Positions 22,357 through 35,946 of a stretch of 64,000 nucleotides of DNA are shown one piece after another (the stretch's first letter is position 1; every line of letters starts with the position of its first letter). The notes under the pieces are model-generated. The model saw only the letters and a list, made by a program, of their open reading frames with translations, was not told the DNA's origin and ran no database searches. Where the stretch lies: contig CAZXKQ010000007.1 in the NCBI GenBank assembly GCA_964641395.1, positions 7,815 to 71,814 of the forward strand, given 5' to 3'. A program made the translations under genes and the position numbers. This DNA is from an uncultured Phascolarctobacterium sp. (GTDB lineage Bacteria; Bacillota; Negativicutes; Acidaminococcales; Acidaminococcaceae).

Positions 22357-22785
22357 TCACCACTTTTCCGGCAGCTTCTCTGCCACCGGGCCCATGATGA
22401 ACATGATGGTGCTGGCCTGGGCGATGAGGGAGCCGTCTTCCTCGGTGATCTGGGCCGCGATGTTGATGGTGGACTGGCCCCGGTGGACGATGGAGCTGCT
22501 GCAGCGGAGGCTGCCGAAGCCCTTCACCCCTGCCAGGTAGGTGATATTCATGTTGAGGGTGGTGGCCATCTTGCCTACGGAAGCGCAGGTGATGCCGTTG
22601 ACGCAGTCCGCCAGGGCCGCCAGGGCGCCCCCGTGGACCCCCAGCCAGTGGTTGGTGTGGATGTCGAAGTCGATGGGCATCACCAGGCTGCAGCCGCCGC
22701 AGTGCACCTCTTGGATCTGGATCTTCAAAACGTTCATAAAGGCGTTGGTGCTCCACATCTTGCGGATTAGGGCTTCTGGGTTCAT
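22357..22785 (-). CDS. PaaI-family hotdog-fold thioesterase
   Basis: 142 aa. NHWLGVHGGALAALADCVNGITC matches the PaaI/DUF4442 signature (G..HGG....LAD). AAGGAGG RBS. Confidence 0.85.
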   Translation of the reverse strand: MNPEALIRKMWSTNAFMNVLKIQIQEVHCGGCSLVMPIDFDIHTNHWLGVHGGALAALADCVNGITCASVGKMATTLNMNITYLAGVKGFGSLRCSSSIVHRGQSTINIAAQITEEDGSLIAQASTIMFIMGPVAEKLPEKW

Positions 22786-22829
22786 AGGGTACCTCCTTAA
22801 GGTTTAGATACAGGAGCCAGACTGGTCTA

Positions 22830-22859
22830 ATTATAGTCTAGGCCGGCCCTGGAAGGCAA
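22830..22859 (-). promoter_or_regulatory. Possible sigma-A promoter for the thioesterase-tauE unit (TTGCCT-18 nt-TATAAT)
   Basis: Minus strand GGCCTTGCCTTCCAGGGCCGGCCTAGACTATAATTAG. Confidence 0.45.
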
Positions 22860-22885
22860 GGCCTTTTTCGCACCAGAGCCGGGGC

Positions 22886-23839
22886 TCAGAAGAAGACGTT
22901 GACGACGGTCATGTAGAGGGGGATGACGATGAGGCCCCCTAGGATGGTGATGAAGGAGAGGGCGGCGGCGTAGGAACTGTCCGCCCCGTACTGCTTAGAG
23001 ACGATGGCCATCTGGGTCATGGCGGGCATGGCGGCCTGCATGGTGAAGACCCGCAGGGAGATGGGGGCCACCGGGATGAAGGGGGCCAGCACCAGGACGC
23101 AGAGGGGGCAGACTAGGAAGCGGCCTAGGAGGCCCAGGTAGATGTCCCGCTCAAAGTTGAAGTGGCGCAGGCTGATCTTGCTGATCTCGATGCCGATGAA
23201 GACCAGGGAGAGGGGGGTGGTGAGGTTGCCGATGTACTGGAAGCCCCTAAAGAGGAAGCGAGGCACCGGGATGCTGAAGATGATCAACAGCAGGGCCGCC
23301 ACGAAGGCGATGAGGGGCGGGGACCACAGCTTCTTCAGCACCGAAAGGGAGAAGGGGTTGCTCCCCTTCCCCTCCACGTCGGCCACGATGTTCTGCACCC
23401 CCAGGGTCCAGAAGAAGACCAGGTTGACGATGTAGTAGAGCATCACCGAGGGGATGCTCACATCCCCGAAGAGGGCCTGGTTCACCGGCAGGCCGATGAA
23501 CATAGTGTTGGCGATGAAGAAGTTGGTGATGAAGATGCCCCGCCGGCCGTGGCGCACTTGAAAGACCCGGCCTACCAGCCTGCCCACTATCAGGGCCAGG
23601 ACGATGGAGCAGACAGGCAGCAGGGTGTCCGGCGCCAGCTCCGCCAACTGCTGGGCGGTGAAGTTCTTGGTCAAGCTGGTGATCATGTAGAGGGGGAGGG
23701 AGACGTTGGTGACCAGGCGGGCGATGATGGTGCTGCTGTTCTCGGCAAACCAGCCTTTCAGGCTCAGCACGTAGCCCACCCCTACGATGAAGACGATGGT
23801 GAAGATGCCCTCCAGGGCCTGCAAGATGAAGCCTAACAT
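22886..23839 (-). CDS. AEC (auxin efflux carrier) family transporter, MdcF-like
   Basis: 317 aa with about 10 TM segments. AEC family fold; the putative malonate carrier MdcF of proteobacterial mdc clusters belongs to this family. Confidence 0.85.
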   Translation of the reverse strand: MLGFILQALEGIFTIVFIVGVGYVLSLKGWFAENSSTIIARLVTNVSLPLYMITSLTKNFTAQQLAELAPDTLLPVCSIVLALIVGRLVGRVFQVRHGRRGIFITNFFIANTMFIGLPVNQALFGDVSIPSVMLYYIVNLVFFWTLGVQNIVADVEGKGSNPFSLSVLKKLWSPPLIAFVAALLLIIFSIPVPRFLFRGFQYIGNLTTPLSLVFIGIEISKISLRHFNFERDIYLGLLGRFLVCPLCVLVLAPFIPVAPISLRVFTMQAAMPAMTQMAIVSKQYGADSSYAAALSFITILGGLIVIPLYMTVVNVFF

Positions 23840-23974
23840 AGAAATAATCCTTTCCTAAGCCAAGGGAGTTAAAGACACACAAGGTCCGCCTGCAGAGGCG
23901 AACCTTGTATGCTTTTTAGGAGGTGTTAAGATTGGGATGTGTTTATGCTAAGGAGGGCCGCCCTGCTCATGTCC

Positions 23975-24922
23975 CTAAAGCAGGGCAGTGGGAAACTCCT
24001 TATTTTCTAAGAGATAGAGGGCTATGGTGATAGAAAGGAGGTCTGCGCTGCCTCCGGGGCTGATGCCCTGGCTGACGAAGGCCCGCTCCGCCTCTGCCAA
24101 GGCCTGGCGGCCGGCGGGGGTGAAGACGCTGCCTAGCTCCAAGAGCCGGGCCGCCTCTTCCTTGACCTGCCGGGCGGCTGCTGTGCCTGCCCGCCAAACC
24201 ACGTTGCTGTCTTCTACCACGGCCAGGAGCTGGATGAAGCTGTGCACTAAAGCGTCATTCAGGCTGGCCCCTGCGGCCAGGGCGGCGGTGAGGGCCGGCA
24301 GCCCCCAGCCTACCACGCTGGGAAAGCCCTGTTCAATTTCGCCTCTGATGCCTATTATACCATAGCGCCGGTACAATTGCTCCCCTGCCGTCCGGCTTTT
24401 TTTACAGTTGGCTAACTCTCGCTCCACCAGCCCTGCGGTCATGGCCCGGACTACCGGGAGGAGGTCCTCCTTCCCTAGGCGGTGTTGCAGGCAGTAGCCT
24501 GCCGCGGCACAGAGGAGGCCGCCGCTGAAGAGGATGCCCCGCTGGGTGTTCACGCCCTTGGTAGCCTGCAGCATCTCCCTCTCCGCCCCTACCCCGTAGG
24601 CCCTGGCCCTTTGGAAGAGGTCTTGGGGACTGCCGGGGCGGCACAGGCCCAGCTCCAAAAGATCGGCAAAGGCCTGGGCCAGCACGGCGCTGCTGGCGGC
24701 AAAGGTGAGGATGTCCATGTCCCGGTGGGCCCCCTGGCTGCACCTGGTGACCAGGCCGGGCTTAGGATGGACGCACACTTCTAACATGACGGCCTGGCTG
24801 AGGTAGAGGCCCAGCCTCACCAGGCCCGGATCCGGGTGGGGAAGGGAAGCAAGCTGATACGCCGCCTGTCCAGGCCCTAGGCTGGCGCCTAGCGCCTCCG
24901 CCTTCATCATAGCTTGCCACAC
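23975..24922 (-). CDS. madG: Triphosphoribosyl-dephospho-CoA synthase (CitG/MdcB/MadG family)
   Basis: 315 aa; VHPKPGLVTRCSQGAHRDMD and GVNTQRGILFSGGLL are CitG-family blocks. The start codon is uncertain (GTG 24922 or ATG 24910). Confidence 0.85.
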   Translation of the reverse strand: MWQAMMKAEALGASLGPGQAAYQLASLPHPDPGLVRLGLYLSQAVMLEVCVHPKPGLVTRCSQGAHRDMDILTFAASSAVLAQAFADLLELGLCRPGSPQDLFQRARAYGVGAEREMLQATKGVNTQRGILFSGGLLCAAAGYCLQHRLGKEDLLPVVRAMTAGLVERELANCKKSRTAGEQLYRRYGIIGIRGEIEQGFPSVVGWGLPALTAALAAGASLNDALVHSFIQLLAVVEDSNVVWRAGTAAARQVKEEAARLLELGSVFTPAGRQALAEAERAFVSQGISPGGSADLLSITIALYLLENKEFPTALL

Positions 24923-25047
24923 GCAGCGCTCAGCTCCTTCTCATCCTTCTCGTCTTACTCAACCTTCTCAACCTCATCCCCTGCCGCCCCTGGGGCCTGG
25001 CAGGCCGGCTAGGGCGGCACGGGGTACTTGCAAGAGGAACCTAGGGC

Positions 25048-25803
25048 TTAACCAAAGATGGCCTTGGTCAGGAAGTAGAAGATAGAGGGGAAGGTCAGGC
25101 AGCCAGAGCCGGTGTAGAAGGTGGCAGTCATGGCTGCGTAGGGAACCAGCTTAGGATCTACTGCGGCCATACCGGCAGCAGTGCCAGAGGTGGTGCCTGC
25201 CAACCCGCCGAAGACCATGGCCGACTGAGGATTGTTGATGCCCAGGGGCTTGGCCACGAAGGGGGTGAAGATCATTACTGCCAGGGACTTAACTACGCCG
25301 GCAGCAATGGAGATGGCGATAACCTCGCTAGAGGCGCCTAAGGCCGCACCAGTTACAGGGCCTACTACGAAGGTAGCTACCCCTGCACCGATGGTAACTA
25401 GGTCGACGCTGGAACGATAGCCCAGGGCGAAGGCCACTACCACGCCGGCGATCCAGGAGGTGATGAGGCCGAAGACCAGGGACAGCACGCCTACGATGCC
25501 TACTTTCTTGATCTCCCGCAGGTCGGCGCCGAAGGCGGTAGATACGATGGCGAAGTCACGGAACATAGCGCCGCCCATCAGGCCGATGCCAGCGAAGAGG
25601 GGGATGGTGGCGATACCCTTGGAGCCGCCGCCGATATAGGCCATTACCAGGCCGAAGAGGATGGCTACCGCGCTGCCGTGGATACGGCCCTTGGACAGCC
25701 CTGCCAGCTTATAAGCGATTAAGTTGGCGATGGCGATAATAACGAAAGCGGTAATCAAACCGTTTGACATTAAAACTTTGCCAAACATCGCACCGAAGTT
25801 CAT
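25048..25803 (-). CDS. madM: Malonate transporter subunit MadM
   Basis: 251 aa polytopic membrane protein. Its size, its position after madL and its glycine-rich TM pattern fit MadM. Confidence 0.8.
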   Translation of the reverse strand: MNFGAMFGKVLMSNGLITAFVIIAIANLIAYKLAGLSKGRIHGSAVAILFGLVMAYIGGGSKGIATIPLFAGIGLMGGAMFRDFAIVSTAFGADLREIKKVGIVGVLSLVFGLITSWIAGVVVAFALGYRSSVDLVTIGAGVATFVVGPVTGAALGASSEVIAISIAAGVVKSLAVMIFTPFVAKPLGINNPQSAMVFGGLAGTTSGTAAGMAAVDPKLVPYAAMTATFYTGSGCLTFPSIFYFLTKAIFG

Positions 25804-25822
25804 AATGATACCTCCTATCTAC

Positions 25823-26179
25823 TTATTTCTTAGCAAACGAGCTGAGCACGGGTATCAGCAGGAAGGCCAGGGCGGAGCCTAACAGGCCGCCTAAGAAGGC
25901 TACGATGCCGCCGGAAACGGCTGCTGCTACGTTCTGAATGGAGCTCATCGCTACTACGATAGGAATGTACATTGCGGACCAGAAGGCGATGCCCTCTTGG
26001 GACTTCTTGTCCAACCAGCCGGCGTCGATGCCCTTGTTGCTCAAAAGGATCAGGAAGAGCATGGCAAAGCCTACGCCGCCGATGTTGGCCTTAACCCCCA
26101 GCAGGGCGCCTAGCACATCGCCGATATACATGCCAGTTAGATAGCAGAAAGCTAGCAAACCTACACCATAAATTACCAT
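25823..26179 (-). CDS. madL: Malonate transporter subunit MadL
   Basis: Start MVIYGVGLLAF is preceded by AAGGAGAG (the track start lies 12 codons upstream). 118 aa, 4 TM; pairs with madM. Confidence 0.8.
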   Translation of the reverse strand: MVIYGVGLLAFCYLTGMYIGDVLGALLGVKANIGGVGFAMLFLILLSNKGIDAGWLDKKSQEGIAFWSAMYIPIVVAMSSIQNVAAAVSGGIVAFLGGLLGSALAFLLIPVLSSFAKK

Positions 26180-26294
26180 AATAAATCTCTCCTTAGTACA
26201 ATTTTTTATTATCACCGCCCAGGCCTAGGGGTAGGCCCAGGCGGCGAAACAACTAAAGGGATTAATATGCGGCTCTTAGGAAACTTGTTTCAGC

Positions 26295-26504
26295 TTATTC
26301 CACAACGGCCAGGACGGTGCCGGCGCTAACCCGGTCACCAGGCTGTACCTTGTACTCCTTAACCACGCCGGCTACGGGAGAGGGAACCAGCTGTTTCATC
26401 TTCATAGCTTCCATGACGATCAAAACGTCCTTAACGTTTACCTTGTCGCCAACTTGCTTCTCAAAACGAACGATCTTGCCAGGTACGCGGGATTTAATTT
26501 CCAT
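26295..26504 (-). CDS. madF: Biotin carboxyl carrier protein (biotinyl domain), distal copy
   Basis: 69 aa, MEIKSRVPGKIVRF...VMEAMKMKQLV...VLAVVE, with the EAMKM biotinylation motif. AAGGAGA RBS. The track ORF adds 8 spurious N-terminal codons. Confidence 0.88.
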   Translation of the reverse strand: MEIKSRVPGKIVRFEKQVGDKVNVKDVLIVMEAMKMKQLVPSPVAGVVKEYKVQPGDRVSAGTVLAVVE

Positions 26505-26538
26505 AATGCTATCTCCTTTGCTACACAAACCCTGAGGC

Positions 26539-26748
26539 TTACTCTACAACGGCCAGGACGGTGCCGGCGCTAACCCGGTCACCAGGCTGTACCTTGTACT
26601 CTTTAACTACGCCAGCTACGGGAGAGGGAACTAATTGTTTCATCTTCATAGCTTCCATGACGATCAAAACGTCCTTAACGTTCACTTTGTCGCCCACTTG
26701 TTTCTCGAAACGAACGATTTTGCCAGGTACACGAGATTTGATTTCCAT
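26539..26748 (-). CDS. madF: Biotin carboxyl carrier protein (biotinyl domain), proximal copy
   Basis: 69 aa, amino-acid sequence identical to the 26295..26504 product. AAGGAGA RBS. Confidence 0.88.
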   Translation of the reverse strand: MEIKSRVPGKIVRFEKQVGDKVNVKDVLIVMEAMKMKQLVPSPVAGVVKEYKVQPGDRVSAGTVLAVVE

Positions 26749-26762
26749 AATGCATGTCTCCT

Positions 26763-27449
26763 TTACTTTAAATATTCCAGCGTGTCCGCTTTGGACAGCA
26801 GTTGGACGTCTTCCATGCTCTTCCCTAACACCGTGCTGGTGTCCATGAAGAGCTCGACCAGCTTCACCCCGTAACCATTGGGCAGGTCCACCTCAAAGTC
26901 CAGACTCACTCCTAAGGAGGAGTGGCGGGCCTTGCTGTACAGCTCTTGCAAGCCTTCCAGGGGGGCGGACTGCACCAAGATGTCCAGGTCGGAAGCATCG
27001 TCAGTATAGGGCAGGCCGGTGGCCAGCTCCAAGGCGGCGGAGCCTAGGATGCCCACTTGCAAGCCTAGATCCACAGCTAGCTCAAAGACATTGGCGGCGG
27101 CCTCCAGGCAGTGGTTGCGGGGGGTCCAGTCCTCCTGGCCGTAGACCCGGCCCTGGAGCAGCTCGTAGGGGGTCACTACGGCCTCGATGGCTGCTTCCTG
27201 GGCGTAGGCCGGCAGCCGCAGCCGCTGCTCCTCGACCCGTCCGTAGTGGACGAAGCCCAGGGGGACGGCCTGGGGCCGTTCCGGGGCCCGGCGCATAATG
27301 CCCGGTATGTCGGTGGGGCTCAGCAGCACCTCCCGCACCATGGCCAGGAAGGCCCCGCTGTAATGGGGGGCTGCCTCCTGGTAGATGGCCCGGCGGCCTG
27401 CCTCTGTCACATAGGCTAGGTTGTGTCTCTTTAGCTTCGCTTTGTCCAT
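26763..27449 (-). CDS. mdcG: Malonate decarboxylase holo-ACP synthase (phosphoribosyl-dephospho-CoA transferase, MdcG family)
   Basis: 228 aa. GILGSAALELATGLPYTDDASDLDILV is the nucleotidyltransferase-like MdcG core (GS...TG......SDLDL). Confidence 0.8.
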   Translation of the reverse strand: MDKAKLKRHNLAYVTEAGRRAIYQEAAPHYSGAFLAMVREVLLSPTDIPGIMRRAPERPQAVPLGFVHYGRVEEQRLRLPAYAQEAAIEAVVTPYELLQGRVYGQEDWTPRNHCLEAAANVFELAVDLGLQVGILGSAALELATGLPYTDDASDLDILVQSAPLEGLQELYSKARHSSLGVSLDFEVDLPNGYGVKLVELFMDTSTVLGKSMEDVQLLSKADTLEYLK

Positions 27450-28531
27450 ACTGGGTCCGCCTTGCTGTTTTGTTGGTAATCCAGTTGGGCCTGCACCAAG
27501 TCGTCGAAGAACTTGGTCTTAGAAGGCTGGTCTAGCACATAGCCTGGCTGCTCCCGGCCGCTGGCTATGTAGTCGGGCCGCAGTTCCAGGATGGTCCGGG
27601 GAGCCTTCAATACTACGTCAGGGGCTATCTTCACCACCCTGCCCTTGATCCGCAGGATGGTGCGGGCTACCCGGCCCAGGGTGGTCTGGGAGGCCAGCTT
27701 GCTGGCCTTCACGATCACCTCGAACTCCGGATAGGTCCGCTCCCTTCGGTAGGTGATGATGGAGCCGGAGCGGTTGCAGACATGGCCGCTGCTGCTGACG
27801 GGGAAGCTGTCCCCCATAGGCAGGCCGCCTACCACCAGCTCGTAGAGCCCCTTGTTCCCCGGCAGGGGCAGCAGCTCCACGTCCTCCCGCAGAGGCACCC
27901 CGTCCAGGGCCAGCCAGCCGAACTCCTGGCAGCCGTACAGGTCGTGGACCTCTGCCTGCAGCACCTTCTGGGCGATGGGCAGCAGCTCTAGGTCCAGGGG
28001 AGTGCCGGCAGTGAGGAGGATGAGGCCCTGGGGCAGCTCGCCGGCCACCCCCATGTGCACCGCGTCCTCCAGGGCCGCCCGCAGGAAGGAGCTCTCCCCT
28101 ACCACCACCCGGGGCTGCTGTTCGTAGAGGGCGGCCAAGAAGGCGTCCCGGCTGGAGCGGATCAAGAAGGACCACTCCAAGCCGTAGGCCCGCAGGGCCT
28201 CCCCGGCGAAAACGTTCACCAAGGGGGGGTAGGTCACCACCAGCCTGTCCCCCGGCCTCACCCCAGCCCGCCGCAGGGCCTCCTGGGAGGCTGCCAGCCG
28301 GGCCGGCAGCTCCGCATGGGTGATGCCTACGATGTTCTGGAAGGCCGAGGAACCGGTAGTGAAGGTGAGATAGCTTAGGTTGAGGGGGGTATGGACTTCC
28401 TCAATAACGTGAGCCGCCGTAGGGCCGGCTATGCCCTTGTCCGCCAAGGAGCGGCGGGGCATTTCCCCCATGGTGGGGGCAGAGCCGAAGTCTTTGACTA
28501 ATGCGCTTATTTCTTGCAGGATGCTGGCCAT
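27431..28531 (-). CDS. madH: Adenylate-forming ligase, probably the MadH-type acetate--[ACP-SH] ligase
   Basis: 366 aa. LTFTTGSSAFQNIV is a degenerate AMP-binding T[ST]G[ST]TG motif. The position between madD and mdcG corresponds to madH of the Malonomonas cluster. Function is inferred from context. Confidence 0.6.
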   Translation of the reverse strand: MASILQEISALVKDFGSAPTMGEMPRRSLADKGIAGPTAAHVIEEVHTPLNLSYLTFTTGSSAFQNIVGITHAELPARLAASQEALRRAGVRPGDRLVVTYPPLVNVFAGEALRAYGLEWSFLIRSSRDAFLAALYEQQPRVVVGESSFLRAALEDAVHMGVAGELPQGLILLTAGTPLDLELLPIAQKVLQAEVHDLYGCQEFGWLALDGVPLREDVELLPLPGNKGLYELVVGGLPMGDSFPVSSSGHVCNRSGSIITYRRERTYPEFEVIVKASKLASQTTLGRVARTILRIKGRVVKIAPDVVLKAPRTILELRPDYIASGREQPGYVLDQPSKTKFFDDLVQAQLDYQQNSKADPVWTKRS

Positions 28532-28555
28532 ACTACCCCTGTTTCCTCCTTAAGC

Positions 28556-29446
28556 TTAAGCGTTGAGATACTTGTCAGCCACAGCGGCGAACTCTTCGTT
28601 CATCTTGGCGATGGCCTTCAGCCGCTGTACCCGGCCGCCCCGCTGGTCGCCTAAGAGGCCGCGGCCCCAGGGGCCTAGCTTCTCGTACTCGCCGGCGGCC
28701 TTCAGGGCTGCCACCTCTTTCACATGCTTGGCGATGACCGGCCGCATGTCTTCTACCTTCTCCACGATCTCCTGCACGCCGCCTAGGTTGTAGAAGAAGT
28801 CTACGCCGGGGGCGAAGACCGGGTTAACCTTGGACAGCTCTTCCAGGCGCTCGATGTCCATCTTGGTGATACGGGAGATGGAGGTGATAGGCATTACGTG
28901 GATCATGGTGCCGAAGTCCTTGGAGAGGGCCAGGATGTGGTCGGCCTGGAGGCCGTGGCACAGGAAGGCGCCGGAGATGGCACGGCCGATAACCATGGCG
29001 ATAACCGGATGGCCGGCCTTGCGGGCTTCAGCCAGGGCCAGCTGGTAGCCGCCGGTGGACTTGTTCATGCCGGCGATCTCTTCCATCTTGCCAGGGCCGT
29101 TGCCTGGGGTGTCGACGATGAGGATCAGGGGCCGTTTCTCTGCCAGGGGCTTGTCAGCATCGGCTTCCATGCTGCGATAAACAGCGGTAGCCATCTTGTA
29201 GCCCTCTTCCAGGCCGATTACGCCGCCGAAAACTACTGGGAAGCGCTCGTTGAAGGCGTACGCGTCGTTGGCGATAACGGTGCAGGTGGTGCCCTCTAAC
29301 TTAGCGGTACCTACTACGCTGCCAGGACCGTACTCAGGATCGAAGTCTGCATCGCCTACTTTGTTCTCTACGAAAGTGCCCTCGTCCACAATCATCTCGA
29401 TTGCGTCACGACCGCGGCCTATCATAGTGTTGTCCATTTCATCCAT
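28556..29446 (-). CDS. madD: Malonate decarboxylase carboxyltransferase subunit (MadD / MdcE-like)
   Basis: 296 aa. Crotonase-superfamily carboxyltransferase alpha-type fold (PLILIVDTPGNGPG, VIGRAISGAF). Confidence 0.85.
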   Translation of the reverse strand: MDEMDNTMIGRGRDAIEMIVDEGTFVENKVGDADFDPEYGPGSVVGTAKLEGTTCTVIANDAYAFNERFPVVFGGVIGLEEGYKMATAVYRSMEADADKPLAEKRPLILIVDTPGNGPGKMEEIAGMNKSTGGYQLALAEARKAGHPVIAMVIGRAISGAFLCHGLQADHILALSKDFGTMIHVMPITSISRITKMDIERLEELSKVNPVFAPGVDFFYNLGGVQEIVEKVEDMRPVIAKHVKEVAALKAAGEYEKLGPWGRGLLGDQRGGRVQRLKAIAKMNEEFAAVADKYLNA

Positions 29447-29464
29447 CTTCGTTACCTCCTCGCT

Positions 29465-30424
29465 TTAGGGGCGTACCCTGCGTTTAACGACTTTCAGGAA
29501 TTCCTCGGTAGTCAGTTCGGGGAGTTCAGCCGGGTTCTCGTTGCCGTAGTACTTCCACAGGTCCATGGAATCCTTGGGCTGCATATCGCCTACCAGCTTA
29601 ACCAGGCCTTGCTGCTCCTGCACTAGCTTCAGGGAGCCGATGCGGCGCATAGCTTCGATCTCTTCCATGCTCTTGCCGGCTACGTCGGCCAGGGCGGCGT
29701 GGAAGGCGCCGATCTGATCCTCTACCAGGTAGTTGCAGTCGCCGATGATGTATTTGTGCTTGGCGCCGGTGGTGCGGTATACCAGGGCCTTGTTGGAAGC
29801 GTCGAACTCTTCCTTGCCCATCTCCTGCTCGATAACCTCAGGACCGGTGAGGCCGATACGGCCCTCCTCGTTCATGATGATTACGTCAGTGGCGGCGGCT
29901 ACGAAGCCCATGCCGCCGAAGCAGCCCACCTTGGAGCCTACTACGGACACTACAGGGAGTTTCTTGCGGCAGTCTTGGAAGGCGTCCATAACCTCTGCAT
30001 GGGCCAGCAGGCCGGCATTGGCCTCGTGGAGGCGTACGCCGCCGGTCTCGAAGGAGATGACCACCATGGGACGGCGCTCTGCGTAATCCTCGGGATGGGC
30101 GGCCTTGATCTCCTCAGCAGCCTTCAGGGCCAGGCGGATGGAGCCTACCATCTTGGCGCCGTTCACCTCGCCGATGGCGCCGCCGATGAACTTGCCTTCC
30201 ATGGAGATTACGAAGACAGGGTGCTTGCCGATGAGGCCGACGCCGGTAACGGTGCCGTCATCGAACTCTACAGCGGTGCCCAGTACTGGCAGATGGGGGC
30301 TCATGAAGCGGTCTAGGGGCCCTAACAGTTCGGTAAAGCTACCCTTATCCACCATGCCGATGGCCCGTTCCCGAGCATTGGCATCAAAGAAACTGCTGGT
30401 CTCTAACTCATTCCAGGATTTCAT
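29465..30424 (-). CDS. madC: Malonate decarboxylase carboxyltransferase subunit (MadC / MdcD-like)
   Basis: 319 aa. Carboxyltransferase beta-type fold (GGAIGEVNGAKM, ETGGVRLHEANAGL). Confidence 0.85.
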   Translation of the reverse strand: MKSWNELETSSFFDANARERAIGMVDKGSFTELLGPLDRFMSPHLPVLGTAVEFDDGTVTGVGLIGKHPVFVISMEGKFIGGAIGEVNGAKMVGSIRLALKAAEEIKAAHPEDYAERRPMVVISFETGGVRLHEANAGLLAHAEVMDAFQDCRKKLPVVSVVGSKVGCFGGMGFVAAATDVIIMNEEGRIGLTGPEVIEQEMGKEEFDASNKALVYRTTGAKHKYIIGDCNYLVEDQIGAFHAALADVAGKSMEEIEAMRRIGSLKLVQEQQGLVKLVGDMQPKDSMDLWKYYGNENPAELPELTTEEFLKVVKRRVRP

Positions 30425-30426
30425 TC

Positions 30427-30753
30427 TTACTCAGCCTCCTCTTGTTGTGCTTCTGCCAGGGCCTGACGCAAGCGCATGTACACTACGATGGGGGTGGCGT
30501 TGTCATCGTTGATCTCGATGCTGATGTTGCCTACGCCGGTATCGTTGACGAATTTGGCCAGCATCCGCTCCCAAACTTGGTCGAAGCCTTTAACGGGGGT
30601 GATGACCTTGGCCTTCACGTCGCCGCCGAGGTCCTTCTTCTCCATCAATACTTCCAGGTCGCCGCTGCCGGTCACCCCTAGGTGGGACCAAGCCTTGGCA
30701 ATGCCTTGGGTAGCTTCGGATTTGAAAGAAAATTCTAAAGTTTGTAATGCCAC
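30427..30753 (-). CDS. madE: Malonate decarboxylase acyl carrier protein (delta subunit)
   Basis: 108 aa. HLGVTGSGDLEVLM contains the conserved Ser that carries the 2'-(5''-phosphoribosyl)-3'-dephospho-CoA group. GTG start after GAGGAGGAG. Confidence 0.88.
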   Translation of the reverse strand: MALQTLEFSFKSEATQGIAKAWSHLGVTGSGDLEVLMEKKDLGGDVKAKVITPVKGFDQVWERMLAKFVNDTGVGNISIEINDDNATPIVVYMRLRQALAEAQQEEAE

Positions 30754-30768
30754 TTTACTCTCCTCCTC

Positions 30769-32442
30769 TTACCAGTTCCTGAATTTAGCAGGCGGATTGT
30801 AAAGACCGCCAGACCATTCTACCAAGTCATGAACGTTCTTGGCTGCCAGCATGGACCGAGTGGCCTTGGTGATGTCGATGCCCAGGTCGGCCGGAGTCTT
30901 GATGATGCCGGCTTCCCGCAGGCGTTTGGTCTCCTTGGGATCGGCCTTCAGGCCTACTTCGGTGAAGCCTGCGATGCCCCGGATGGCGGCGGTGCGCTCG
31001 TCCATGGTGCGGCACTTGTGCAGGTAGGCAATGCCTTCCTCGGTGATGACGTGGGTCAGGTCGTCGCCGTAGATCATAACCGGCTCAATGGCCAGGTTGG
31101 CGTTCTTAGCCAGCTTGAAGGCGTCCAGCTCCTCTACGAAGCCAGGGGCCAGCTTCTCCCGGAAGGTCTCGGCCAGCTGTACTACCAGCCGTTTGCCCCG
31201 GTGTACAGGGCCCCACATCTGCTCCTTGATGCCGTACTCTTCGCCGCATTTCAGCCAGGCGTAGGAGGAATGACGACGGCCCTTAGGATCGCAGCCCATG
31301 TTGGGGGCGCCGCCGAAGCCTGCTACCCGGTTGGCGGTAGCGGTGGAGGAGTTGCCGTAGGGGTCGATCTGCAGGGTGCCGCCGATGAACATATCGATGG
31401 CATAGTGGCCTGCAGTCTGGGAGAAGGCCCGGTTGGAACGCATGGAGCCGTCAGGCCCTACGAAGAAGATGTCGCTGCGGGCGGCTACATAGTCTTCCAT
31501 GCCCAGCTCGCCGCCGAAGCAGTGAACCGACTCTACCCAGCCGGTCTCGATGGCGGGGATGAGGGAGGGATGGGGGTTGAGGATGAAGTTCTTGCAGATC
31601 TTCCCCTTCAGGCCCAGCTGCTCGCCGTAGGTGGGCAGCAGCAGCTCGATGGCGGCGGTATCGAAGCCGATGCCGTGGTTCATGGACTCTACCTGGTACT
31701 CCCCGTAGATGCCCTTGATGGCCATCATGCCCTTCAGTACCTGGGCGTCGGTGATGAGGGCCGGGTCGCGGGTGAAGAGGGGCTCGATATAGAAGGGTTT
31801 GGGAGACTGGATGACAAAGTCTACCCAGTCGGCAGGAATGTCCACCCGGGGCAGCTTGTCCACGATCTGGTTAACCTGCACTACTACGATGCCTTGGCGG
31901 AACTTGGTGGCTTCCACGATGGCAGGAGTATCCTCAGTGCTGAAGCCGGTGAAGAGGTTGCCGTCCCGGTCGGCCATGGTGGCGGCTACCAGGGCTACCT
32001 TAGGAGTCAGATCCAGGAAGTAACGGCCATACAGCTCTAGGTAGGTGTGGATGGCGCCTAGCTCTAGCTTGCCAGACTGGAGGAACTCGGCGATGCGGCC
32101 GGCCTGGGGGCCGGAGAAGGACATGTCCAGCTTCTTGGCGATGCCTTTTTCGAACACGTCCAGGTGCTCAGGCAGGGTCAGTACCGACTGAACCATGTGC
32201 AGATCATGCACCTTGCCCGGATCAACCTGGCACAGGCACTTGGCCAGGAAGTCGGCCTGCTTCTGGTTGTTGCCCTCGATGTTGACCTTGTCAAAAGGCT
32301 TGATCACGGTCTCCAGCAAGGCGACTGCGTCCTTGGCATCCACGATCTTGCCTTCCTTAACCAGCGGAGCTGCTGCGCTAAGGCGGGCCAGGGTGTCTTT
32401 CTTGCGAGTATCCCACTCACGAGTGACTTTTTGAAACTCCAT
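30769..32442 (-). CDS. madA: Malonate decarboxylase alpha subunit (acetyl-S-ACP:malonate ACP transferase)
   Basis: 557 aa; long collinear identity blocks with MdcA as I recall it (EGNNQKQADFL, IGAIHTY.ELY, FYIEPLFTRDP, LNPHPSLIPAIE.GWVESVHCFG, AGFGGAPNMG). Confidence 0.93.
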   Translation of the reverse strand: MEFQKVTREWDTRKKDTLARLSAAAPLVKEGKIVDAKDAVALLETVIKPFDKVNIEGNNQKQADFLAKCLCQVDPGKVHDLHMVQSVLTLPEHLDVFEKGIAKKLDMSFSGPQAGRIAEFLQSGKLELGAIHTYLELYGRYFLDLTPKVALVAATMADRDGNLFTGFSTEDTPAIVEATKFRQGIVVVQVNQIVDKLPRVDIPADWVDFVIQSPKPFYIEPLFTRDPALITDAQVLKGMMAIKGIYGEYQVESMNHGIGFDTAAIELLLPTYGEQLGLKGKICKNFILNPHPSLIPAIETGWVESVHCFGGELGMEDYVAARSDIFFVGPDGSMRSNRAFSQTAGHYAIDMFIGGTLQIDPYGNSSTATANRVAGFGGAPNMGCDPKGRRHSSYAWLKCGEEYGIKEQMWGPVHRGKRLVVQLAETFREKLAPGFVEELDAFKLAKNANLAIEPVMIYGDDLTHVITEEGIAYLHKCRTMDERTAAIRGIAGFTEVGLKADPKETKRLREAGIIKTPADLGIDITKATRSMLAAKNVHDLVEWSGGLYNPPAKFRNW

Positions 32443-32489
32443 TACGGTCTCTCCTTTCTGAACTATAAAAACTCCTTAATCTAAGAACC

Positions 32490-32540
32490 GCAAAAAAGCA
32501 AAAGAGAGACCTAGGCGGGTGGTGCCGCTTATTCTCTCTC
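32490..32540 (-). terminator. Intrinsic terminator between the hutP-like gene and madA (T3)
   Basis: Minus strand GAGAGAGAATAAGCGG-caccac-CCGCCTAGGTCTCTC (outer AGAGAGA/TCTCTCT stem, inner GCGG/CCGC stem, internal loop), followed by TTTTGCTTTTTT. Confidence 0.5.
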
Positions 32541-32580
32541 ATATGCCACTATGAAGTTGTGGAATAGCTGCCTCTTGCGG

Positions 32581-33027
32581 TTAGATGTGCATAATACCCA
32601 GTCCCGCCCGCTCATGATTAGTCATGTAGTGGAGGGCGGATAGGCCGAACATGGCCACTGCCAGCCAGTGCTCGTCCCTGGCGATGACCACCTTCATGGC
32701 CAGGCTGCTGGTACGGCTGACGCTGATCAGTATGCCCTTCTTGGCCTCTTCGGTGGCGTGGACCAGGGCGTGGATCTCGTTGCTCTGCTTGGCGATGATG
32801 CCGCCGTTGAGGCCGGCGCCTACCACCGCCTTGATGACCTTTTCATCGAACTCGTTAAAGCTGTTCCTGGCACCGACTTCGGTAACCACCACCCTGTAAC
32901 CCAGCCGCACAGCCGCATCCTTCAGCCGCTGCTCGTCCAGCAGGGTCTTGCTCAAGGCGATGAGCATAGCTGCAGAGCCTACGCCTCTGATACTATTGGT
33001 GATAAAATCTGAGGTACTGGTACTCAT
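32581..33027 (-). CDS. HutP-family RNA-binding (antiterminator-type) protein
   Basis: 148 aa from ATG 33027 (GGAGGAG RBS; the track ORF carries a 67-codon false extension). Collinear with B. subtilis HutP: EIHALVHATEEA / ESHALYHATMEA, HWLAVAMFG / DWIAVSLYG, and C-terminus NHERAGLGIMHI / EHETFGVGINHI. Confidence 0.85.
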   Translation of the reverse strand: MSTSTSDFITNSIRGVGSAAMLIALSKTLLDEQRLKDAAVRLGYRVVVTEVGARNSFNEFDEKVIKAVVGAGLNGGIIAKQSNEIHALVHATEEAKKGILISVSRTSSLAMKVVIARDEHWLAVAMFGLSALHYMTNHERAGLGIMHI

Positions 33028-33122
33028 AGTAGCATGCTCCTCCCCGCCGTCAGGCGGCTGAATGTGAGGGCGGCGCTTGCTCAGAAGCCGGCCAGGCTCT
33101 AGGCCGGGCTGGCGCTTCTCAG

Positions 33123-33919: not shown

Positions 33920-35134
33920 CTATACTTTAACCATGCCGATGGTAGCGATGAAGACGCCGCAGGCGATGGCGGATACGATGACGCCGGCGATGTTAGCGCC
34001 CATGGCTACAGGCATTACTACGGCGAACATGTCTACATCCTCAGCAGCGTGCTGGGCGATCTTGGCGGTAGTAGGTACGCAGGATACGCCGGAAACGCCG
34101 ACTACAGGGTTGAATTCGCCCTTCTTGAACCAGTACACTACCCAGCCGCCCAAGATGCCTACGGCACCGGATACGGTCAAGGCCAGGACGCCGAGGACGA
34201 TTAGAGGAGCTACCTTAGGATTCAACAGGGTGGAGGCTTCGCAGAGGGTGCCCAGCAGGAGGCCCAGCATCAAGGTGCCGCTGTAGAGGAGGGCGCCTTC
34301 CAGCAGGTCCTGGTAGGGAACGATCTCGGCTTCTTTAATAGCCAAACCTAAGAAGAAGCTCATGATAAGGGGAGCAGCCATGGGCAGCAGCAGGCAGAGC
34401 AGGCCGCAGCAAACCAGGATGAAGATGAACTTCTTAGCTTTGGGCACTTCAGGAGCGTCGAAGAGGATGTCCTTGCCGCGATACTTCTCCGGTACCAGGG
34501 CCTTTAACAGCCAGGGATAGCCGGCGTAGGTAAGGGACAGGTAGAGGTAGGCGATGACGCTGATAGGCACGAAGAGGTGGGGTGCCAGCATCAAGGAGGT
34601 AAACAGAACCATGGGGCCGTCAGCGCCGCCGATGGAGGCTACGGCTGCTGCTTCATGGGGGGTCAGGCCTAGGTGAACGCCCAGCACCAGGGTAGCGAAG
34701 GTGCCGCACTCGGCGAAGATGGCGATGATGATACTAGTCCAAGGATTGGCCAGGATGAAGCCGATCTCGCACATAGCGCCTACGCCTAGGAAGACCATGC
34801 AGGCTACCAGGGAGTTAGAGAAGGTCAGGTTGTAGATGGGCTGCAAGAAGTTGACTTGCATAATGTCCACTAGTTCCTTAGGATCGCTGATCAGAGGATC
34901 CAGGAACAGGGTGCCTAGCTTGCCCCCCTCTAAGAAGAGGACGCCGCAGTTGATACAGATCATGCCTATGCCCATGGGCACCATGATCAAGGGCTCCAAC
35001 ACCCGCTTAAAGCCCAGGTAGGCCAGGACGAAGCCGAAGGCCACCAGGAAGATACGGGCGATGGCGATGGTGGGTTCTTGCACCAAGAGGGATGCAATAC
35101 CAGGGAATAACTCAGCTACAAAAGATGCATCCAT
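33920..35134 (-). CDS. madB: Na+-translocating carboxybiotin decarboxylase, beta (membrane) subunit (OadB/GcdB/MadB family)
   Basis: 404 aa polytopic protein; SIGGADGPMVLF and other OadB-family blocks. Confidence 0.92.
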   Translation of the reverse strand: MDASFVAELFPGIASLLVQEPTIAIARIFLVAFGFVLAYLGFKRVLEPLIMVPMGIGMICINCGVLFLEGGKLGTLFLDPLISDPKELVDIMQVNFLQPIYNLTFSNSLVACMVFLGVGAMCEIGFILANPWTSIIIAIFAECGTFATLVLGVHLGLTPHEAAAVASIGGADGPMVLFTSLMLAPHLFVPISVIAYLYLSLTYAGYPWLLKALVPEKYRGKDILFDAPEVPKAKKFIFILVCCGLLCLLLPMAAPLIMSFFLGLAIKEAEIVPYQDLLEGALLYSGTLMLGLLLGTLCEASTLLNPKVAPLIVLGVLALTVSGAVGILGGWVVYWFKKGEFNPVVGVSGVSCVPTTAKIAQHAAEDVDMFAVVMPVAMGANIAGVIVSAIACGVFIATIGMVKV

Positions 35135-35265
35135 TATTGCTCGCCTCCTTCACTACTCTTAGAGCCGCCCATGAGCTTGTTCAACAAGACGACGATGGCG
35201 ATCATGAAGAGGGCGATCGCCGCTGTGAACGCGTAAGAGAATAGTGCGTAAATCTCAACGCTCAT
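35134..35265 (-). CDS. Small single-TM protein, OadG-like (decarboxylase gamma subunit candidate)
   Basis: Not in the track (43 aa): MSVEIYALFSYAFTAAIALFMIAIVVLLNKLMGGSKSSEGGEQ. AAGGAG RBS. Its TAA overlaps the madB ATG (TAATG). Confidence 0.5.
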   Translation of the reverse strand: MSVEIYALFSYAFTAAIALFMIAIVVLLNKLMGGSKSSEGGEQ

Positions 35266-35348
35266 CACAAATTACTCCTTTCGACACTGAAGATTTACTG
35301 GAAAAGACCTGTATATTATTGCCGCCCCAGGTTTCCGGACACCAGGGG

Positions 35349-35388
35349 AAACAAAAATACCCTCTTCCGCACTGTACGGAAAAGGGTA
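35349..35388 (-). terminator. Intrinsic terminator T2 in the mad leader
   Basis: Minus strand TACCCTTTTCCG-tacagtg-CGGAAGAGGGTA (12 bp with one G-U), followed by TTTTTGTTT, 84 nt upstream of the oadG-like start. Confidence 0.6.
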
Positions 35389-35810
35389 CTGGCGCACCAG
35401 GGTTTCGCACCTAAGAGGTCGACCGCTCTACGCTGAAGGCCGCCTCTGCCTTCCTAAGGCTAGGCAGCAGGCTTGTTGGCAGGCTGGCGTCCCAAGCAGG
35501 GGCTGTGTGGGGTGGGCGTACACATTCCGTCACTCGCGGAAACATGTAAAGAGTTAAGACCGTGACCTGACTTTGCTGAAAAGCATCACAGAGGCGTGAC
35601 CGTTGCAGAATTCCACTGCATTCTCACCAGCAGAGCACCTCGGGGTGGGGGCAGGCCACCGTGCCGCAGCTCCGCTGCCGCACTGGAAGGCTCCGCTAAG
35701 CGTCTTAATCACTTTCCTTTATTTTTCCCAACAACTATCCAGCCAACACTCTCTTCACTCGCACCACTTCACTGCCGAACAACCATTGAGATAAGCCAGG
35801 CTCCGTCACC

Positions 35811-35854
35811 AAAACAAAAAAGGAGACTGAATGACTCACGATCACTCAATCTCC
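35811..35854 (-). terminator. Intrinsic terminator T1 in the mad leader
   Basis: Minus strand GGAGATTGAGTGA-tcgtgag-TCATTCAGTCTCC (13 bp with two G-U), followed by TTTTTTGTTTT, about 60-100 nt downstream of the predicted TSS. Confidence 0.7.
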
Positions 35855-35885
35855 ACTATTGGTCATGTCGGTCTCACAGGGGGTA

Positions 35886-35909
35886 GCTCTCTCAGACTCT
35901 CGATCTCTA
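35886..35909 (-). promoter_or_regulatory. Three tandem 8-nt NAGAG-N3 units at the 5' end of the mad leader RNA (candidate protein-binding NAG array)
   Basis: Minus strand TAGAGATC GAGAGTCT GAGAGAGC, read directly. Function is inferred only from the NAG-triplet preference of HutP proteins. Confidence 0.3.
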
Positions 35910-35917
35910 TGGCCCAT

Positions 35918-35946
35918 ATTTTATCTAATAAGTCCCTCCTTGTCAA
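35918..35946 (-). promoter_or_regulatory. Strong sigma-A promoter of the mad leader (TTGACA-17 nt-TAAAAT) with an A/T-rich UP-like element upstream
   Basis: Minus strand TTATTTTTTGCCAAAAAAGCCCTTGACAAGGAGGGACTTATTAGATAAAATATGG. Confidence 0.7.

Follow-up and report, generated by a model that had tools for sequence, protein, structure and literature searches.

In this study, we analysed 64,000 nucleotides (nt) of contig CAZXKQ010000007.1 from an uncultured Phascolarctobacterium sp., a stretch referred to below in its whole length as the window, and in particular a hutP-like gene that lies within its malonate decarboxylase (mad) cluster. The 148-residue product was confirmed by its sequence, predicted fold and predicted metal site as a full-length member of the HutP family, and it is likely, judging from sequence and gene context, to be a metal- and ligand-dependent antiterminator dedicated to malonate catabolism, with malonate as its most likely effector. 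The main new result is a conserved purine-rich RNA element that lies on terminators of the mad genes. The fold of this regulator, and probably its mechanism, are known, whereas its regulon, RNA motif, circuit layout and probably its ligand are new.

Several independent comparisons place the protein in the HutP family. The Pfam HutP profile (PF09021) matched it with an E-value of 3.7e-29 and 102 bits, against a gathering cut-off of 25, in an end-to-end alignment of residues 16–146 with profile positions 1–128 of 128. A sequence search of the PDB returned HutP of B. subtilis (1wmq and 1vea; E ~3e-5, full length) and of Geobacillus (4ok9) only. Three blocks correspond in the alignment with B. subtilis HutP, namely EIHALVHATEEA/ESHALYHATMEA, HWLAVAMFG/DWIAVSLYG and, at the C-terminus, NHERAGLGIMHI/EHETFGVGINHI (window protein/HutP). 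In addition, His86, His90 and His138 of the window protein pair with His73, His77 and His138 of HutP, which we take to be the ligands of the divalent metal Mg2+, and this triad was present without exception in 9 divergent and 42 closer homologues. The metal-binding histidines and the histidine-contact residues of B. subtilis HutP were reportedly described by Kumarevel et al. in 2005. An AlphaFold2 monomer model (predicted local distance difference test, pLDDT, 80.8; predicted template modelling score 0.77) has the alpha/beta HutP fold with its four-stranded antiparallel sheet, and its top nine Foldseek matches in the PDB were all HutP chains (template modelling score 0.61–0.67; E 4e-8 to 7e-6), with no significant non-HutP match in that database, where the next match had an E-value above 0.01. 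An earlier reading of this DNA, made from its letters alone (the sequence-only reading), had assigned the open reading frame (ORF) to the HutP family, named the three blocks and proposed that the metal-coordinating histidines were retained. The profile and structure comparisons bear out all three points, the blocks aligning exactly as claimed. The family is small, with only 83 representatives (50% clustering) matching the window protein at E ≤ 1e-3 among 1.84 billion proteins, and its members are annotated publicly as 'HutP family protein' or, wrongly, as 'hut operon positive regulatory protein'; an identical 148-residue protein is also called on public contigs (P0001).

The window protein is, from its sequence and setting, not a hut-type orthologue, because its equivalog score and its gene context fail to correspond, and part of its pocket appears to differ. 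It scored 38.5 bits against the NCBIfam HutP equivalog NF002838 and so missed the cut-off of 155, is ~30% identical to B. subtilis HutP, and has two 6-residue deletions relative to it. The L-histidine pocket of the B. subtilis protein is presumably formed by Tyr69, Glu81, Arg88 and Arg98. Going by the alignment only, Arg88 falls within one of the deletions, Tyr69 lies opposite a gap, Glu81 corresponds to a conserved Glu94, and Arg98 corresponds to Arg105 in the window and to Thr, Ser or Asn in homologues. Thr49, Glu50, Lys112, His133, Thr136, Asn137 and Arg140 of the window protein form a clade-specific set of invariant positions. No hut genes were identified among the neighbours of the hutP-like gene at 53 loci surveyed; instead, mad genes adjoin it, both in the window and at 42 or more of those 53 related loci.

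The 53 loci came from a scan of GTDB with one genome per species, on which the Mad proteins of the window were placed by tblastn. The scan was seeded with an alignment of eight homologues that did not include B. subtilis HutP, the version with that protein being too divergent to use, and its outcome therefore describes a malonate-linked subfamily rather than HutP proteins at large. Synteny with madA and madB, which the sequence-only reading had proposed to survey, holds at each of the 36 Negativicutes loci and also in several Clostridia. In the Negativicutes, which include P. faecium DSM 14760 (L044), P. succinatutens, Acidaminococcaceae, a 'Veillonella' metagenome-assembled genome (MAG) and a Selenomonadales MAG, hutP lies directly 5' of madA and after madB, and birA is present in all but one locus (L047). 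The closest relatives among these loci are rabbit-gut Phascolarctobacterium MAGs (HutP 90% identical, MadA and MadB 97–99%), which places the window in a Phascolarctobacterium-like organism. The same arrangement occurs on identical or near-identical contigs, and homologues at 58–63% identity on Phascolarctobacterium metagenome contigs again follow the order madB-birA-hutP-madA. Clostridial homologues at 47–51% identity (Yanshouia hominis BX1, Hungatella UBA5385, UBA6114 and Eubacteriales MAGs) are encoded immediately 5' of madB-madA or madA. Relatives at 36–50% identity adjoin MadL/MadM malonate carriers, a family III coenzyme A (CoA)-transferase and a Na+-decarboxylase of another type. At loci from Tissierellales and Erysipelothrix (L062, 2044–11373; L063; L064; 36–38% identity), genes for the family III CoA-transferase, MadL/MadM, a DUF5058 protein, the HutP-like protein, an M42 peptidase and a carboxyltransferase/OAD_gamma/biotin-carrier/OAD_beta Na+ pump form a set that looks, from its gene content, like a different malonate pathway. 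No terminator was found directly 3' of hutP at these loci. The order in an Oscillospiraceae MAG is MadL-MadM-hutP-CoA-transferase.

The second line of evidence is the RNA between the hutP-like gene and madA. An intrinsic terminator, T3, begins 40 nt past the TAA of the hutP-like gene and is followed after ~50 nt by the Shine-Dalgarno sequence and ATG (32442) of madA; its 52-nt element has a folding energy of -20.2 kcal/mol (RNAfold). The spacers between hutP-like stop codons and the next genes hold a nearly invariant purine-rich element with the consensus AUAGUGG-N3-5-(U/A)GAGAGAG, followed by a hairpin and a U-run, and this combination of motif and terminator was present in essentially every orthologous spacer. 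The window form, AUAGUGG-N4-UGAGAGAG, constitutes the 5' arm of the terminator. The element is nearly invariant across 29 aligned leaders, and the outer stem is invariant in sequence; the inner stem varies freely across loci, differing wholly in sequence and length between lineages, such that inner stems cannot be aligned between leaders. A 5' arm that is conserved in sequence while the rest of the stem drifts is what would be expected if the arm doubles as a protein-binding site. In 64 non-identical leaders GAGAG occurs at 15.7 per kb versus a background of 0.85 per kb, an 18-fold enrichment, and in Clostridia leaders the terminator is preceded by two or three (N)GAGAG units at a 7–8-nt period.

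The case for T3 rests on this conservation because folding thermodynamics alone are unremarkable (z = -1.2 for the whole T3 spacer). On the coding strand T3 escaped a simple consensus terminator scan because of its internal loops, and the scan reported the inner stem alone, on the opposite strand. RNAalifold, applied to a MAFFT alignment of the 29 leaders, returned no structure, and since variable inner stems were misaligned in its input the leaders were folded one by one, upon which nearly all gave a terminator hairpin of -12 to -32 kcal/mol whose 5' arm opens with GAGAG. When the motif was forced to be unpaired, the predicted fold lost its terminator at T3 and likewise at T1 (the latter described below), a result that follows by construction, though it does show that no alternative terminator is available. 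The sequence-only reading had described the T3 hairpin with its outer and inner stems, its T-run and the madA ribosome-binding site next to it, and had suggested masking the 5' arm; its sequence statements hold throughout, and the masked arm abolishes the terminator fold. An Rfam scan found no family for the T1 or T3 elements. As a separate observation, the segment between T3 and madA (32443–32490 in the window, minus strand) is strongly conserved across genera, as TATATGAAG...TTCAGAAAGGAGAGACCGTA ATG, and more so than a plain Shine-Dalgarno sequence would be; the window keeps its proximal part only.

The same element recurs on a second terminator, T1, in the leader of the unit that ends with the hutP-like gene. 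This unit has its own sigma-70-like promoter, the sole strong promoter-like site on the cluster strand, and TTGACA...TAnAAT promoters lie at the same place in other loci. Three NAGAG units at the predicted 5' end of the transcript form a site-I-like element ~27 nt 5' of the terminator element, and equivalent (N)GAGAG repeats lie 3' of the promoter in other Negativicutes and Clostridia leaders. When a profile of the madA leaders was searched against the window with nhmmer, T3 was recovered (E 6.5e-9), and the only other match below E = 1 fell on T1 (35860–35845) with an E-value of 0.38, which is not significant by itself. The pattern ATAGTGGNNNNTGAG occurs exactly twice in the 64 kb versus 0.02 occurrences expected, at T3 and T1, both on the coding strand and each on a mad-leader terminator, but this pattern was formulated after the sites had been seen and its count is therefore descriptive and no unbiased test. 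The layout of the T1 leader recalls, by analogy, the hut arrangement of site I, linker and site II (PMC12591593; PMC2425495).

Taken as a whole, the layout runs from the promoter through the site-I-like element, T1, a cobalamin-riboswitch-like element and a further terminator-like hairpin (T2) to the small ORF-madB-birA-hutP unit, and then through T3 to madAECDHG, the two biotin-carrier genes (FF), madLM, mdcB, the transporter and the thioesterase. The sequence-only reading had likened the gene order to that of hutP-hutHUIGM. The succession of regulator, terminator and structural genes stands, but the hutP-like gene is the last rather than the first gene of a unit with its own promoter. The candidate RNA target is a purine-rich GAG/UAG element on the 5' arm of the terminator and not a simple UAG-N4 repeat.

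We propose the following mechanism. Transcription would start at the promoter at 35946–35918, meet T1 and then T2, proceed through the small ORF, madB, birA and hutP, and meet T3 before madA and the other mad genes. Both T1 and T3 carry AUAGUGG-N4-UGAG(AGAG) on their 5' arms, with the three NAGAG repeats preceding T1 at the 5' end of the RNA. Basal read-through would supply some HutP-like protein. The activated protein, by analogy a hexamer, would hold a divalent metal through His86, His90 and His138 and, once bound to its effector, would occupy the purine repeats in the nascent RNA, sequester the 5' arm and block the hairpin, so that the polymerase reads through. At T3 this would induce the enzyme genes, and at T1 it would raise expression of the regulator's own gene in a positive loop. 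With the same element on T1 and T3, the regulator probably controls both mad transcription units, its own gene included, and autoregulation is likely since the hutP-like unit stands behind a motif-bearing terminator. We infer malonate as the effector from gene context, because malonate or its carriers are common to three pathway designs found beside hutP-like genes. Retention of the metal site together with the apparent loss of histidine-contact positions is consistent with such a ligand. Malonate is a good bidentate chelator, which makes a metal-bridged ligand, as in HutP-His-Mg2+, chemically reasonable, and the effector would plausibly be chelated to the bound metal.

In addition to the after-the-fact nature of the two-match pattern, several points weigh against this interpretation. 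The element lacks the canonical hut spacing (three NAG triplets with 2–4-nt spacers, in two clusters), and the G of its first 'UAG' is variable, with AUAAUGG and AUAUUGG both occurring, so the recognition rules may differ. No obvious site I was found upstream of T3 in the closest relative, L013, and no terminator was found between hutP and madA at the Negativicutes locus L040. The loop that contains His138 has low confidence in the structural model (pLDDT < 50 for residues 131–140). Three Clostridia loci (L053, L055 and L060) have no evident malonate link, their neighbours being an EamA transporter, and an amidohydrolase together with a DctM-like protein. Moreover, madL and madM lie 3' of T3, and induction would thus need basal read-through or another route of uptake.

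Three alternatives to a malonate-responsive antiterminator have to be weighed. It is unlikely, if still to be taken seriously, that family and antitermination are as proposed and the effector is some other signal tied to the pathway or to physiology, for example malonyl-CoA, acetyl-CoA, acetate, bicarbonate, a malonate precursor (malonamate or ureidomalonate, for instance) or still L-histidine. Such an effector would fit the full retention of the metal site that HutP uses for its amino acid, the up to three paralogues at the Phascolarctobacterium locus L011, which imply diversified ligand or RNA specificities, and the paralogues at L011, L061 and L065 that precede genes for a short-chain fatty acid (SCFA) transporter, a CoA-transferase or MadA paralogue, and an amidase. 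Such neighbours suggest that these copies, at least, respond to an amide precursor, and the amidase-linked paralogues may sense a precursor instead. Malonate, however, is the sole common factor of the MadA–H enzyme, the set of MadLM, CoA-transferase and carboxyltransferase Na+ pump, and the set of MadLM and CoA-transferase. L-Histidine in particular is disfavoured by the apparent loss, in the alignment, of the contacts Arg88 and Tyr69 and by the lack of adjoining hut genes at any of the 53 loci.

The other two alternatives concern the terminators. No sigma-70-like promoter was found between T3 and madA, where only ~50 nt are available, which makes it quite improbable that T3 is the constitutive end of the madB-birA-hutP operon, that madA has its own promoter and that the element is a DNA or RNA feature with no connection to the HutP-like protein, which would act elsewhere or have another role. 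Operons ordinarily close with a terminator, and the conserved segment TATATGAAG...TTCAGAAAGGAGAGACCGTA could hide a non-canonical promoter; however, the element is also found on T1, inside a 5' leader rather than at an operon end, the GAGAG repeats and terminator of Clostridia and Peptostreptococcaceae lie between promoter and regulated genes, and the 5' arm is conserved far beyond the needs of pairing while the rest of the stem drifts. We regard as very improbable the remaining alternative, that the protein binds GAGAG but represses, as TRAP does, or works after transcription, so as to promote termination, block translation or change RNA stability. This is because the element overlaps the 5' arm of the terminator, where occupancy can only oppose hairpin formation, there is no conserved alternative antiterminator helix to disrupt, and a pathway-specific regulator gene placed ahead of terminator-guarded catabolic genes is the arrangement classically seen with positive control. 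TRAP, an oligomeric GAG/UAG-repeat binder that has been compared with HutP (PMC2425495), is nevertheless a negative regulator, and the 3–7 tandem CGAGAGAA repeats of Peptostreptococcaceae leaders recall its sites. The madA ribosome-binding region (GAAAGGAGAGAC) also holds a GAGAG-like stretch, although other cluster genes, too, usually have GAAAGGAG as their Shine-Dalgarno context.

An extra paralogue, hutP1, was found at 13 related Negativicutes loci, at twelve of which it shares 39–53% identity with the window protein. This copy sits 5' of the madB promoter, outside the regulated transcript, and is thereby nearer the classical layout; T2 in these loci is a second GAGAG-type terminator (AUAUAGGAGACGGAGAGAUAG...). 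A tblastn search of the window for a second or decayed hutP copy 5' of madB found none. The L011 contig has a further copy ahead of genes for a MadA paralogue, an SCFA transporter and an amidase, behind a terminator of its own, and in Peptostreptococcaceae the genes that come after hutP encode an SCFA transporter, either a CoA-transferase or a MadA paralogue, and an amidase. The occurrence of multiple copies per locus suggests, from sequence comparison, that paralogues may have their own RNA sites or ligands. The Peptostreptococcaceae leaders 3' of hutP carry 3–7 tandem CGAGAGAA(CUA) repeats and CAUAGAGNGAUUGAGAGACAGAG on the terminator arm, which could represent a TRAP-like repeat array for a HutP-family protein.

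Between T1 and T2 the window has a cobalamin-riboswitch-like element that scored below threshold; its B12-box region is present and its P1/P2 region is absent from the alignment. At the homologous position in seven related Phascolarctobacterium loci, RF00174 scored 45.7–48.7 bits, above the gathering score of 31.5. As a separate observation, riboswitch and hutP1 were mutually exclusive in the 18 loci scanned, with the riboswitch alone in 7, hutP1 alone in 8 and neither in 3. If the riboswitch is functional, B12 would turn off madB-birA-hutP, and malonate decarboxylation would be a B12-independent alternative to succinate fermentation. A wider proposal, possible but on the doubtful side, is that the HutP fold represents a small family of metal-assisted small-molecule sensors reading purine repeats on terminators, that the clade described here senses a metal-malonate chelate in a two-terminator, self-amplifying circuit, and that these bacteria turn to malonate respiration only in the absence of B12, on which their succinate-to-propionate fermentation depends.

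The cluster that surrounds the hutP-like gene is a complete biotin-type (Malonomonas-type), Na+-pumping mad cluster, all on the minus strand (Table 1). It encodes MadA, MadB, the carboxyltransferase MadC/D, the acyl carrier protein (ACP) MadE, the biotin carrier MadF and the carriers MadL/M, with MadA scoring 970 bits against the mdcA model TIGR01110 (cut-off 789). Its order is 43-residue ORF, madB, birA, hutP-like gene, T3, madA, madE, madC, madD, madH, madG, two biotin-carrier genes, madL, madM, mdcB/citG, an AEC-family transporter and a 4HBT thioesterase. BirA was taken to lack the N-terminal repressor domain because bifunctional BirA models matched it only from about residue 77. No DNA-binding domain was found in the cluster ORFs scanned, which agrees with the earlier statement that the cluster encodes no other regulator.

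Some features of the locus were noted in passing. The biotin-carrier (madF) genes lie in tandem (26539–26748 and 26295–26528, minus strand), and related loci have one or two copies. The birA-hutP spacer (33028–33122, minus strand) is 95 nt long, most relatives having ~20 nt, and within it are two hairpins, one GC-rich (AGAAGC...GCUUCU) and lacking a U-run, the other small and located beside the hutP ribosome-binding site. Contigs titled Duodenibacillus, Ruminococcus intestinalis, Segatella copri, Bacteroidaceae, Bacteroides sp. CAG:545 and Escherichia coli ('cleanbin') also bear mad clusters (L026, L029, L030, L031, L035 and L043); their MadA proteins are 92–93% identical to that of the window, as in loci titled Phascolarctobacterium, and these titles are probably binning or labelling errors in the records.

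Table 1. Features of the mad locus in the window and of related loci (positions preceded by a locus number refer to that locus)
Feature	Position	Strand	Evidence
hutP-like gene, 148 residues	32581..33027	-	ORF translation, Pfam PF09021, PDB alignment, predicted structure
T3, intrinsic terminator: AGAGAGA/UCUCUCU outer stem, GCGG/CCGC inner stem, then UUUUGCUUUUUUG	32492..32541	-	sequence, RNAfold, masking
Conserved RNA element AUAGUGGCAUAUGAGAGAGA, candidate protein-binding site; 3' half is the T3 5' arm	32533..32552	-	leader alignment and profile
Sigma-70-like promoter of the madB-birA-hutP unit, TTGACA-17-TAAAAT, 11 of 12	35918..35946	-	promoter scan
Site-I-like element AUAGAGAUCGAGAGUCUGAGAGAG, three NAGAG units, period 8 nt, at predicted transcript 5' end	35887..35910	-	sequence
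T1: AUAGUGGAGAUUGAG motif overlapping 5' arm of intrinsic terminator (stem 35854-35822, then UUUUUUGUUUU)	35811..35859	-	terminator scan and motif search
Cobalamin-riboswitch-like element, sub-threshold, between T1 and T2	35515..35638	-	RF01482, 38.2 bits (gathering score 50)
T2, second terminator-like hairpin and U-run, just 5' of small ORF/madB	35346..35390	-	terminator scan; position kept in related loci
Small hydrophobic ORF, 43 residues, overlapping madB start, conserved beside madB	35134..35265	-	ORF and related loci
madB, membrane Na+-pumping decarboxylase beta subunit (OAD_beta)	33920..35134	-	E 3.3e-101
birA, biotin-protein ligase, catalytic form without N-terminal helix-turn-helix	33123..33878	-	TIGR00121, 201.8 bits
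Structural genes 3' of T3: madA, madE (ACP), madC, madD, madH, madG, two biotin-carrier genes, madL, madM, mdcB/citG, AEC-family transporter, 4HBT thioesterase	22357..32442	-	profile matches
Cobalamin riboswitch in related loci	L017 5536-5675; L018 5520-5658; L020 5500-5642; L026 279-422; L029 5522-5664; L034 5508-5660; L037 5524-5669		RF00174
Second and third HutP paralogues (hutP1; further copy in L011)	L009 5062-5511; L012 4994-5434; L021; L022; L024; L027; L032; L038; L041; L044-L046; L011 259-690		
Repeat arrays, then GAGAG-armed terminator	L058 ~900-1010; L059; L061 ~1060-1140; L065 ~840-930 (CACUACGAGG in L065)		

If the wider proposal made above is true, this would be the first RNA-binding antiterminator protein for a dicarboxylic acid, and its circuit would drive Na+-pumping malonate decarboxylation in abundant gut Phascolarctobacterium and in Clostridia. 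A malonate-linked clade would give the HutP family a second regulon and probably a second ligand and a distinct RNA code, and would offer a natural experiment in the co-evolution of a metal-assisted ligand pocket with an RNA-reading surface. It would also supply the missing regulator for the biotin-type malonate decarboxylases of anaerobes. In addition, malonate use by Phascolarctobacterium, a common human gut genus, becomes directly testable, and the protein and its RNA element represent a possible compact malonate-responsive switch. HutP is a textbook antiterminator whose structure is well understood, yet a 2025 review of RNA-binding antiterminators lists it solely for the hut operons of Bacillus (PMC12591593). 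Our literature search found no publication linking HutP with malonate, and none of relevance on HutP-like proteins or on the mad genes of Phascolarctobacterium.

Comparison with known systems shows which parts of this arrangement are shared. The biotin-dependent, Na+-pumping mad cluster of Malonomonas rubra has the same gene content (madA, B, C, D, E, F, G and H, madL and madM), whereas the window cluster additionally has birA and the hutP-like gene in its midst and two copies of madF; the Malonomonas cluster is, to our knowledge, not known to have an RNA-binding regulator. Known pathway-specific regulators of malonate decarboxylase or utilisation genes are MdcR (LysR type, Klebsiella) and MdcY and MatR (GntR type, Acinetobacter and Rhizobium), with malonate as inducer. 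These are DNA-binding factors of Proteobacteria that act at promoters of biotin-independent mdc/mat operons; no such protein was found among the cluster ORFs scanned, and control here would be at the level of RNA and termination. TRAP of Bacillus, an oligomer activated by a small ligand, controls an intrinsic terminator by recognising several GAG/UAG triplets in the leader RNA, and the multi-copy repeats of Peptostreptococcaceae leaders resemble TRAP-type arrays. TRAP has, however, no sequence or fold relation to the window protein (Foldseek matches HutP only), and it promotes termination by removing an antiterminator, whereas the candidate site here is the terminator arm itself.

The closest counterpart is HutP with the hutPHUIGM operon of B. 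subtilis (1wmq, 1wpv, 1vea and 4h4l; Geobacillus, 4ok9). Both systems share the Pfam family, the fold, a length of ~148 residues, the three metal-binding histidines and the succession of regulator gene, intrinsic terminator and catabolic genes, as well as purine-rich (N)AG repeats that overlap the 5' side of the terminator as the RNA target, which is here a proposed one. They differ in that the regulon is malonate decarboxylase and not histidine utilisation, that the taxa are gut Negativicutes and Clostridia and not Bacilli, and that some genomes have two or three hutP copies per locus. The gene also comes last in its unit, and the unit in turn follows a motif-bearing terminator, which is an autoregulatory layout different from that of hutPHUIGM. 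The T1 leader has an extra upstream repeat cluster with a linker of ~27 nt, compared with ~20 nt between hut sites I and II (PMC12591593; PMC2425495). Finally, where hut has UAG-N4, the RNA motif here takes the form of AUAGUGG-N4-UGAGAGAG or of NAGAG repeats at a 7–11-nt period, and the predicted RNA code thus resembles the NAG repeats of HutP and TRAP and yet appears distinct from both.

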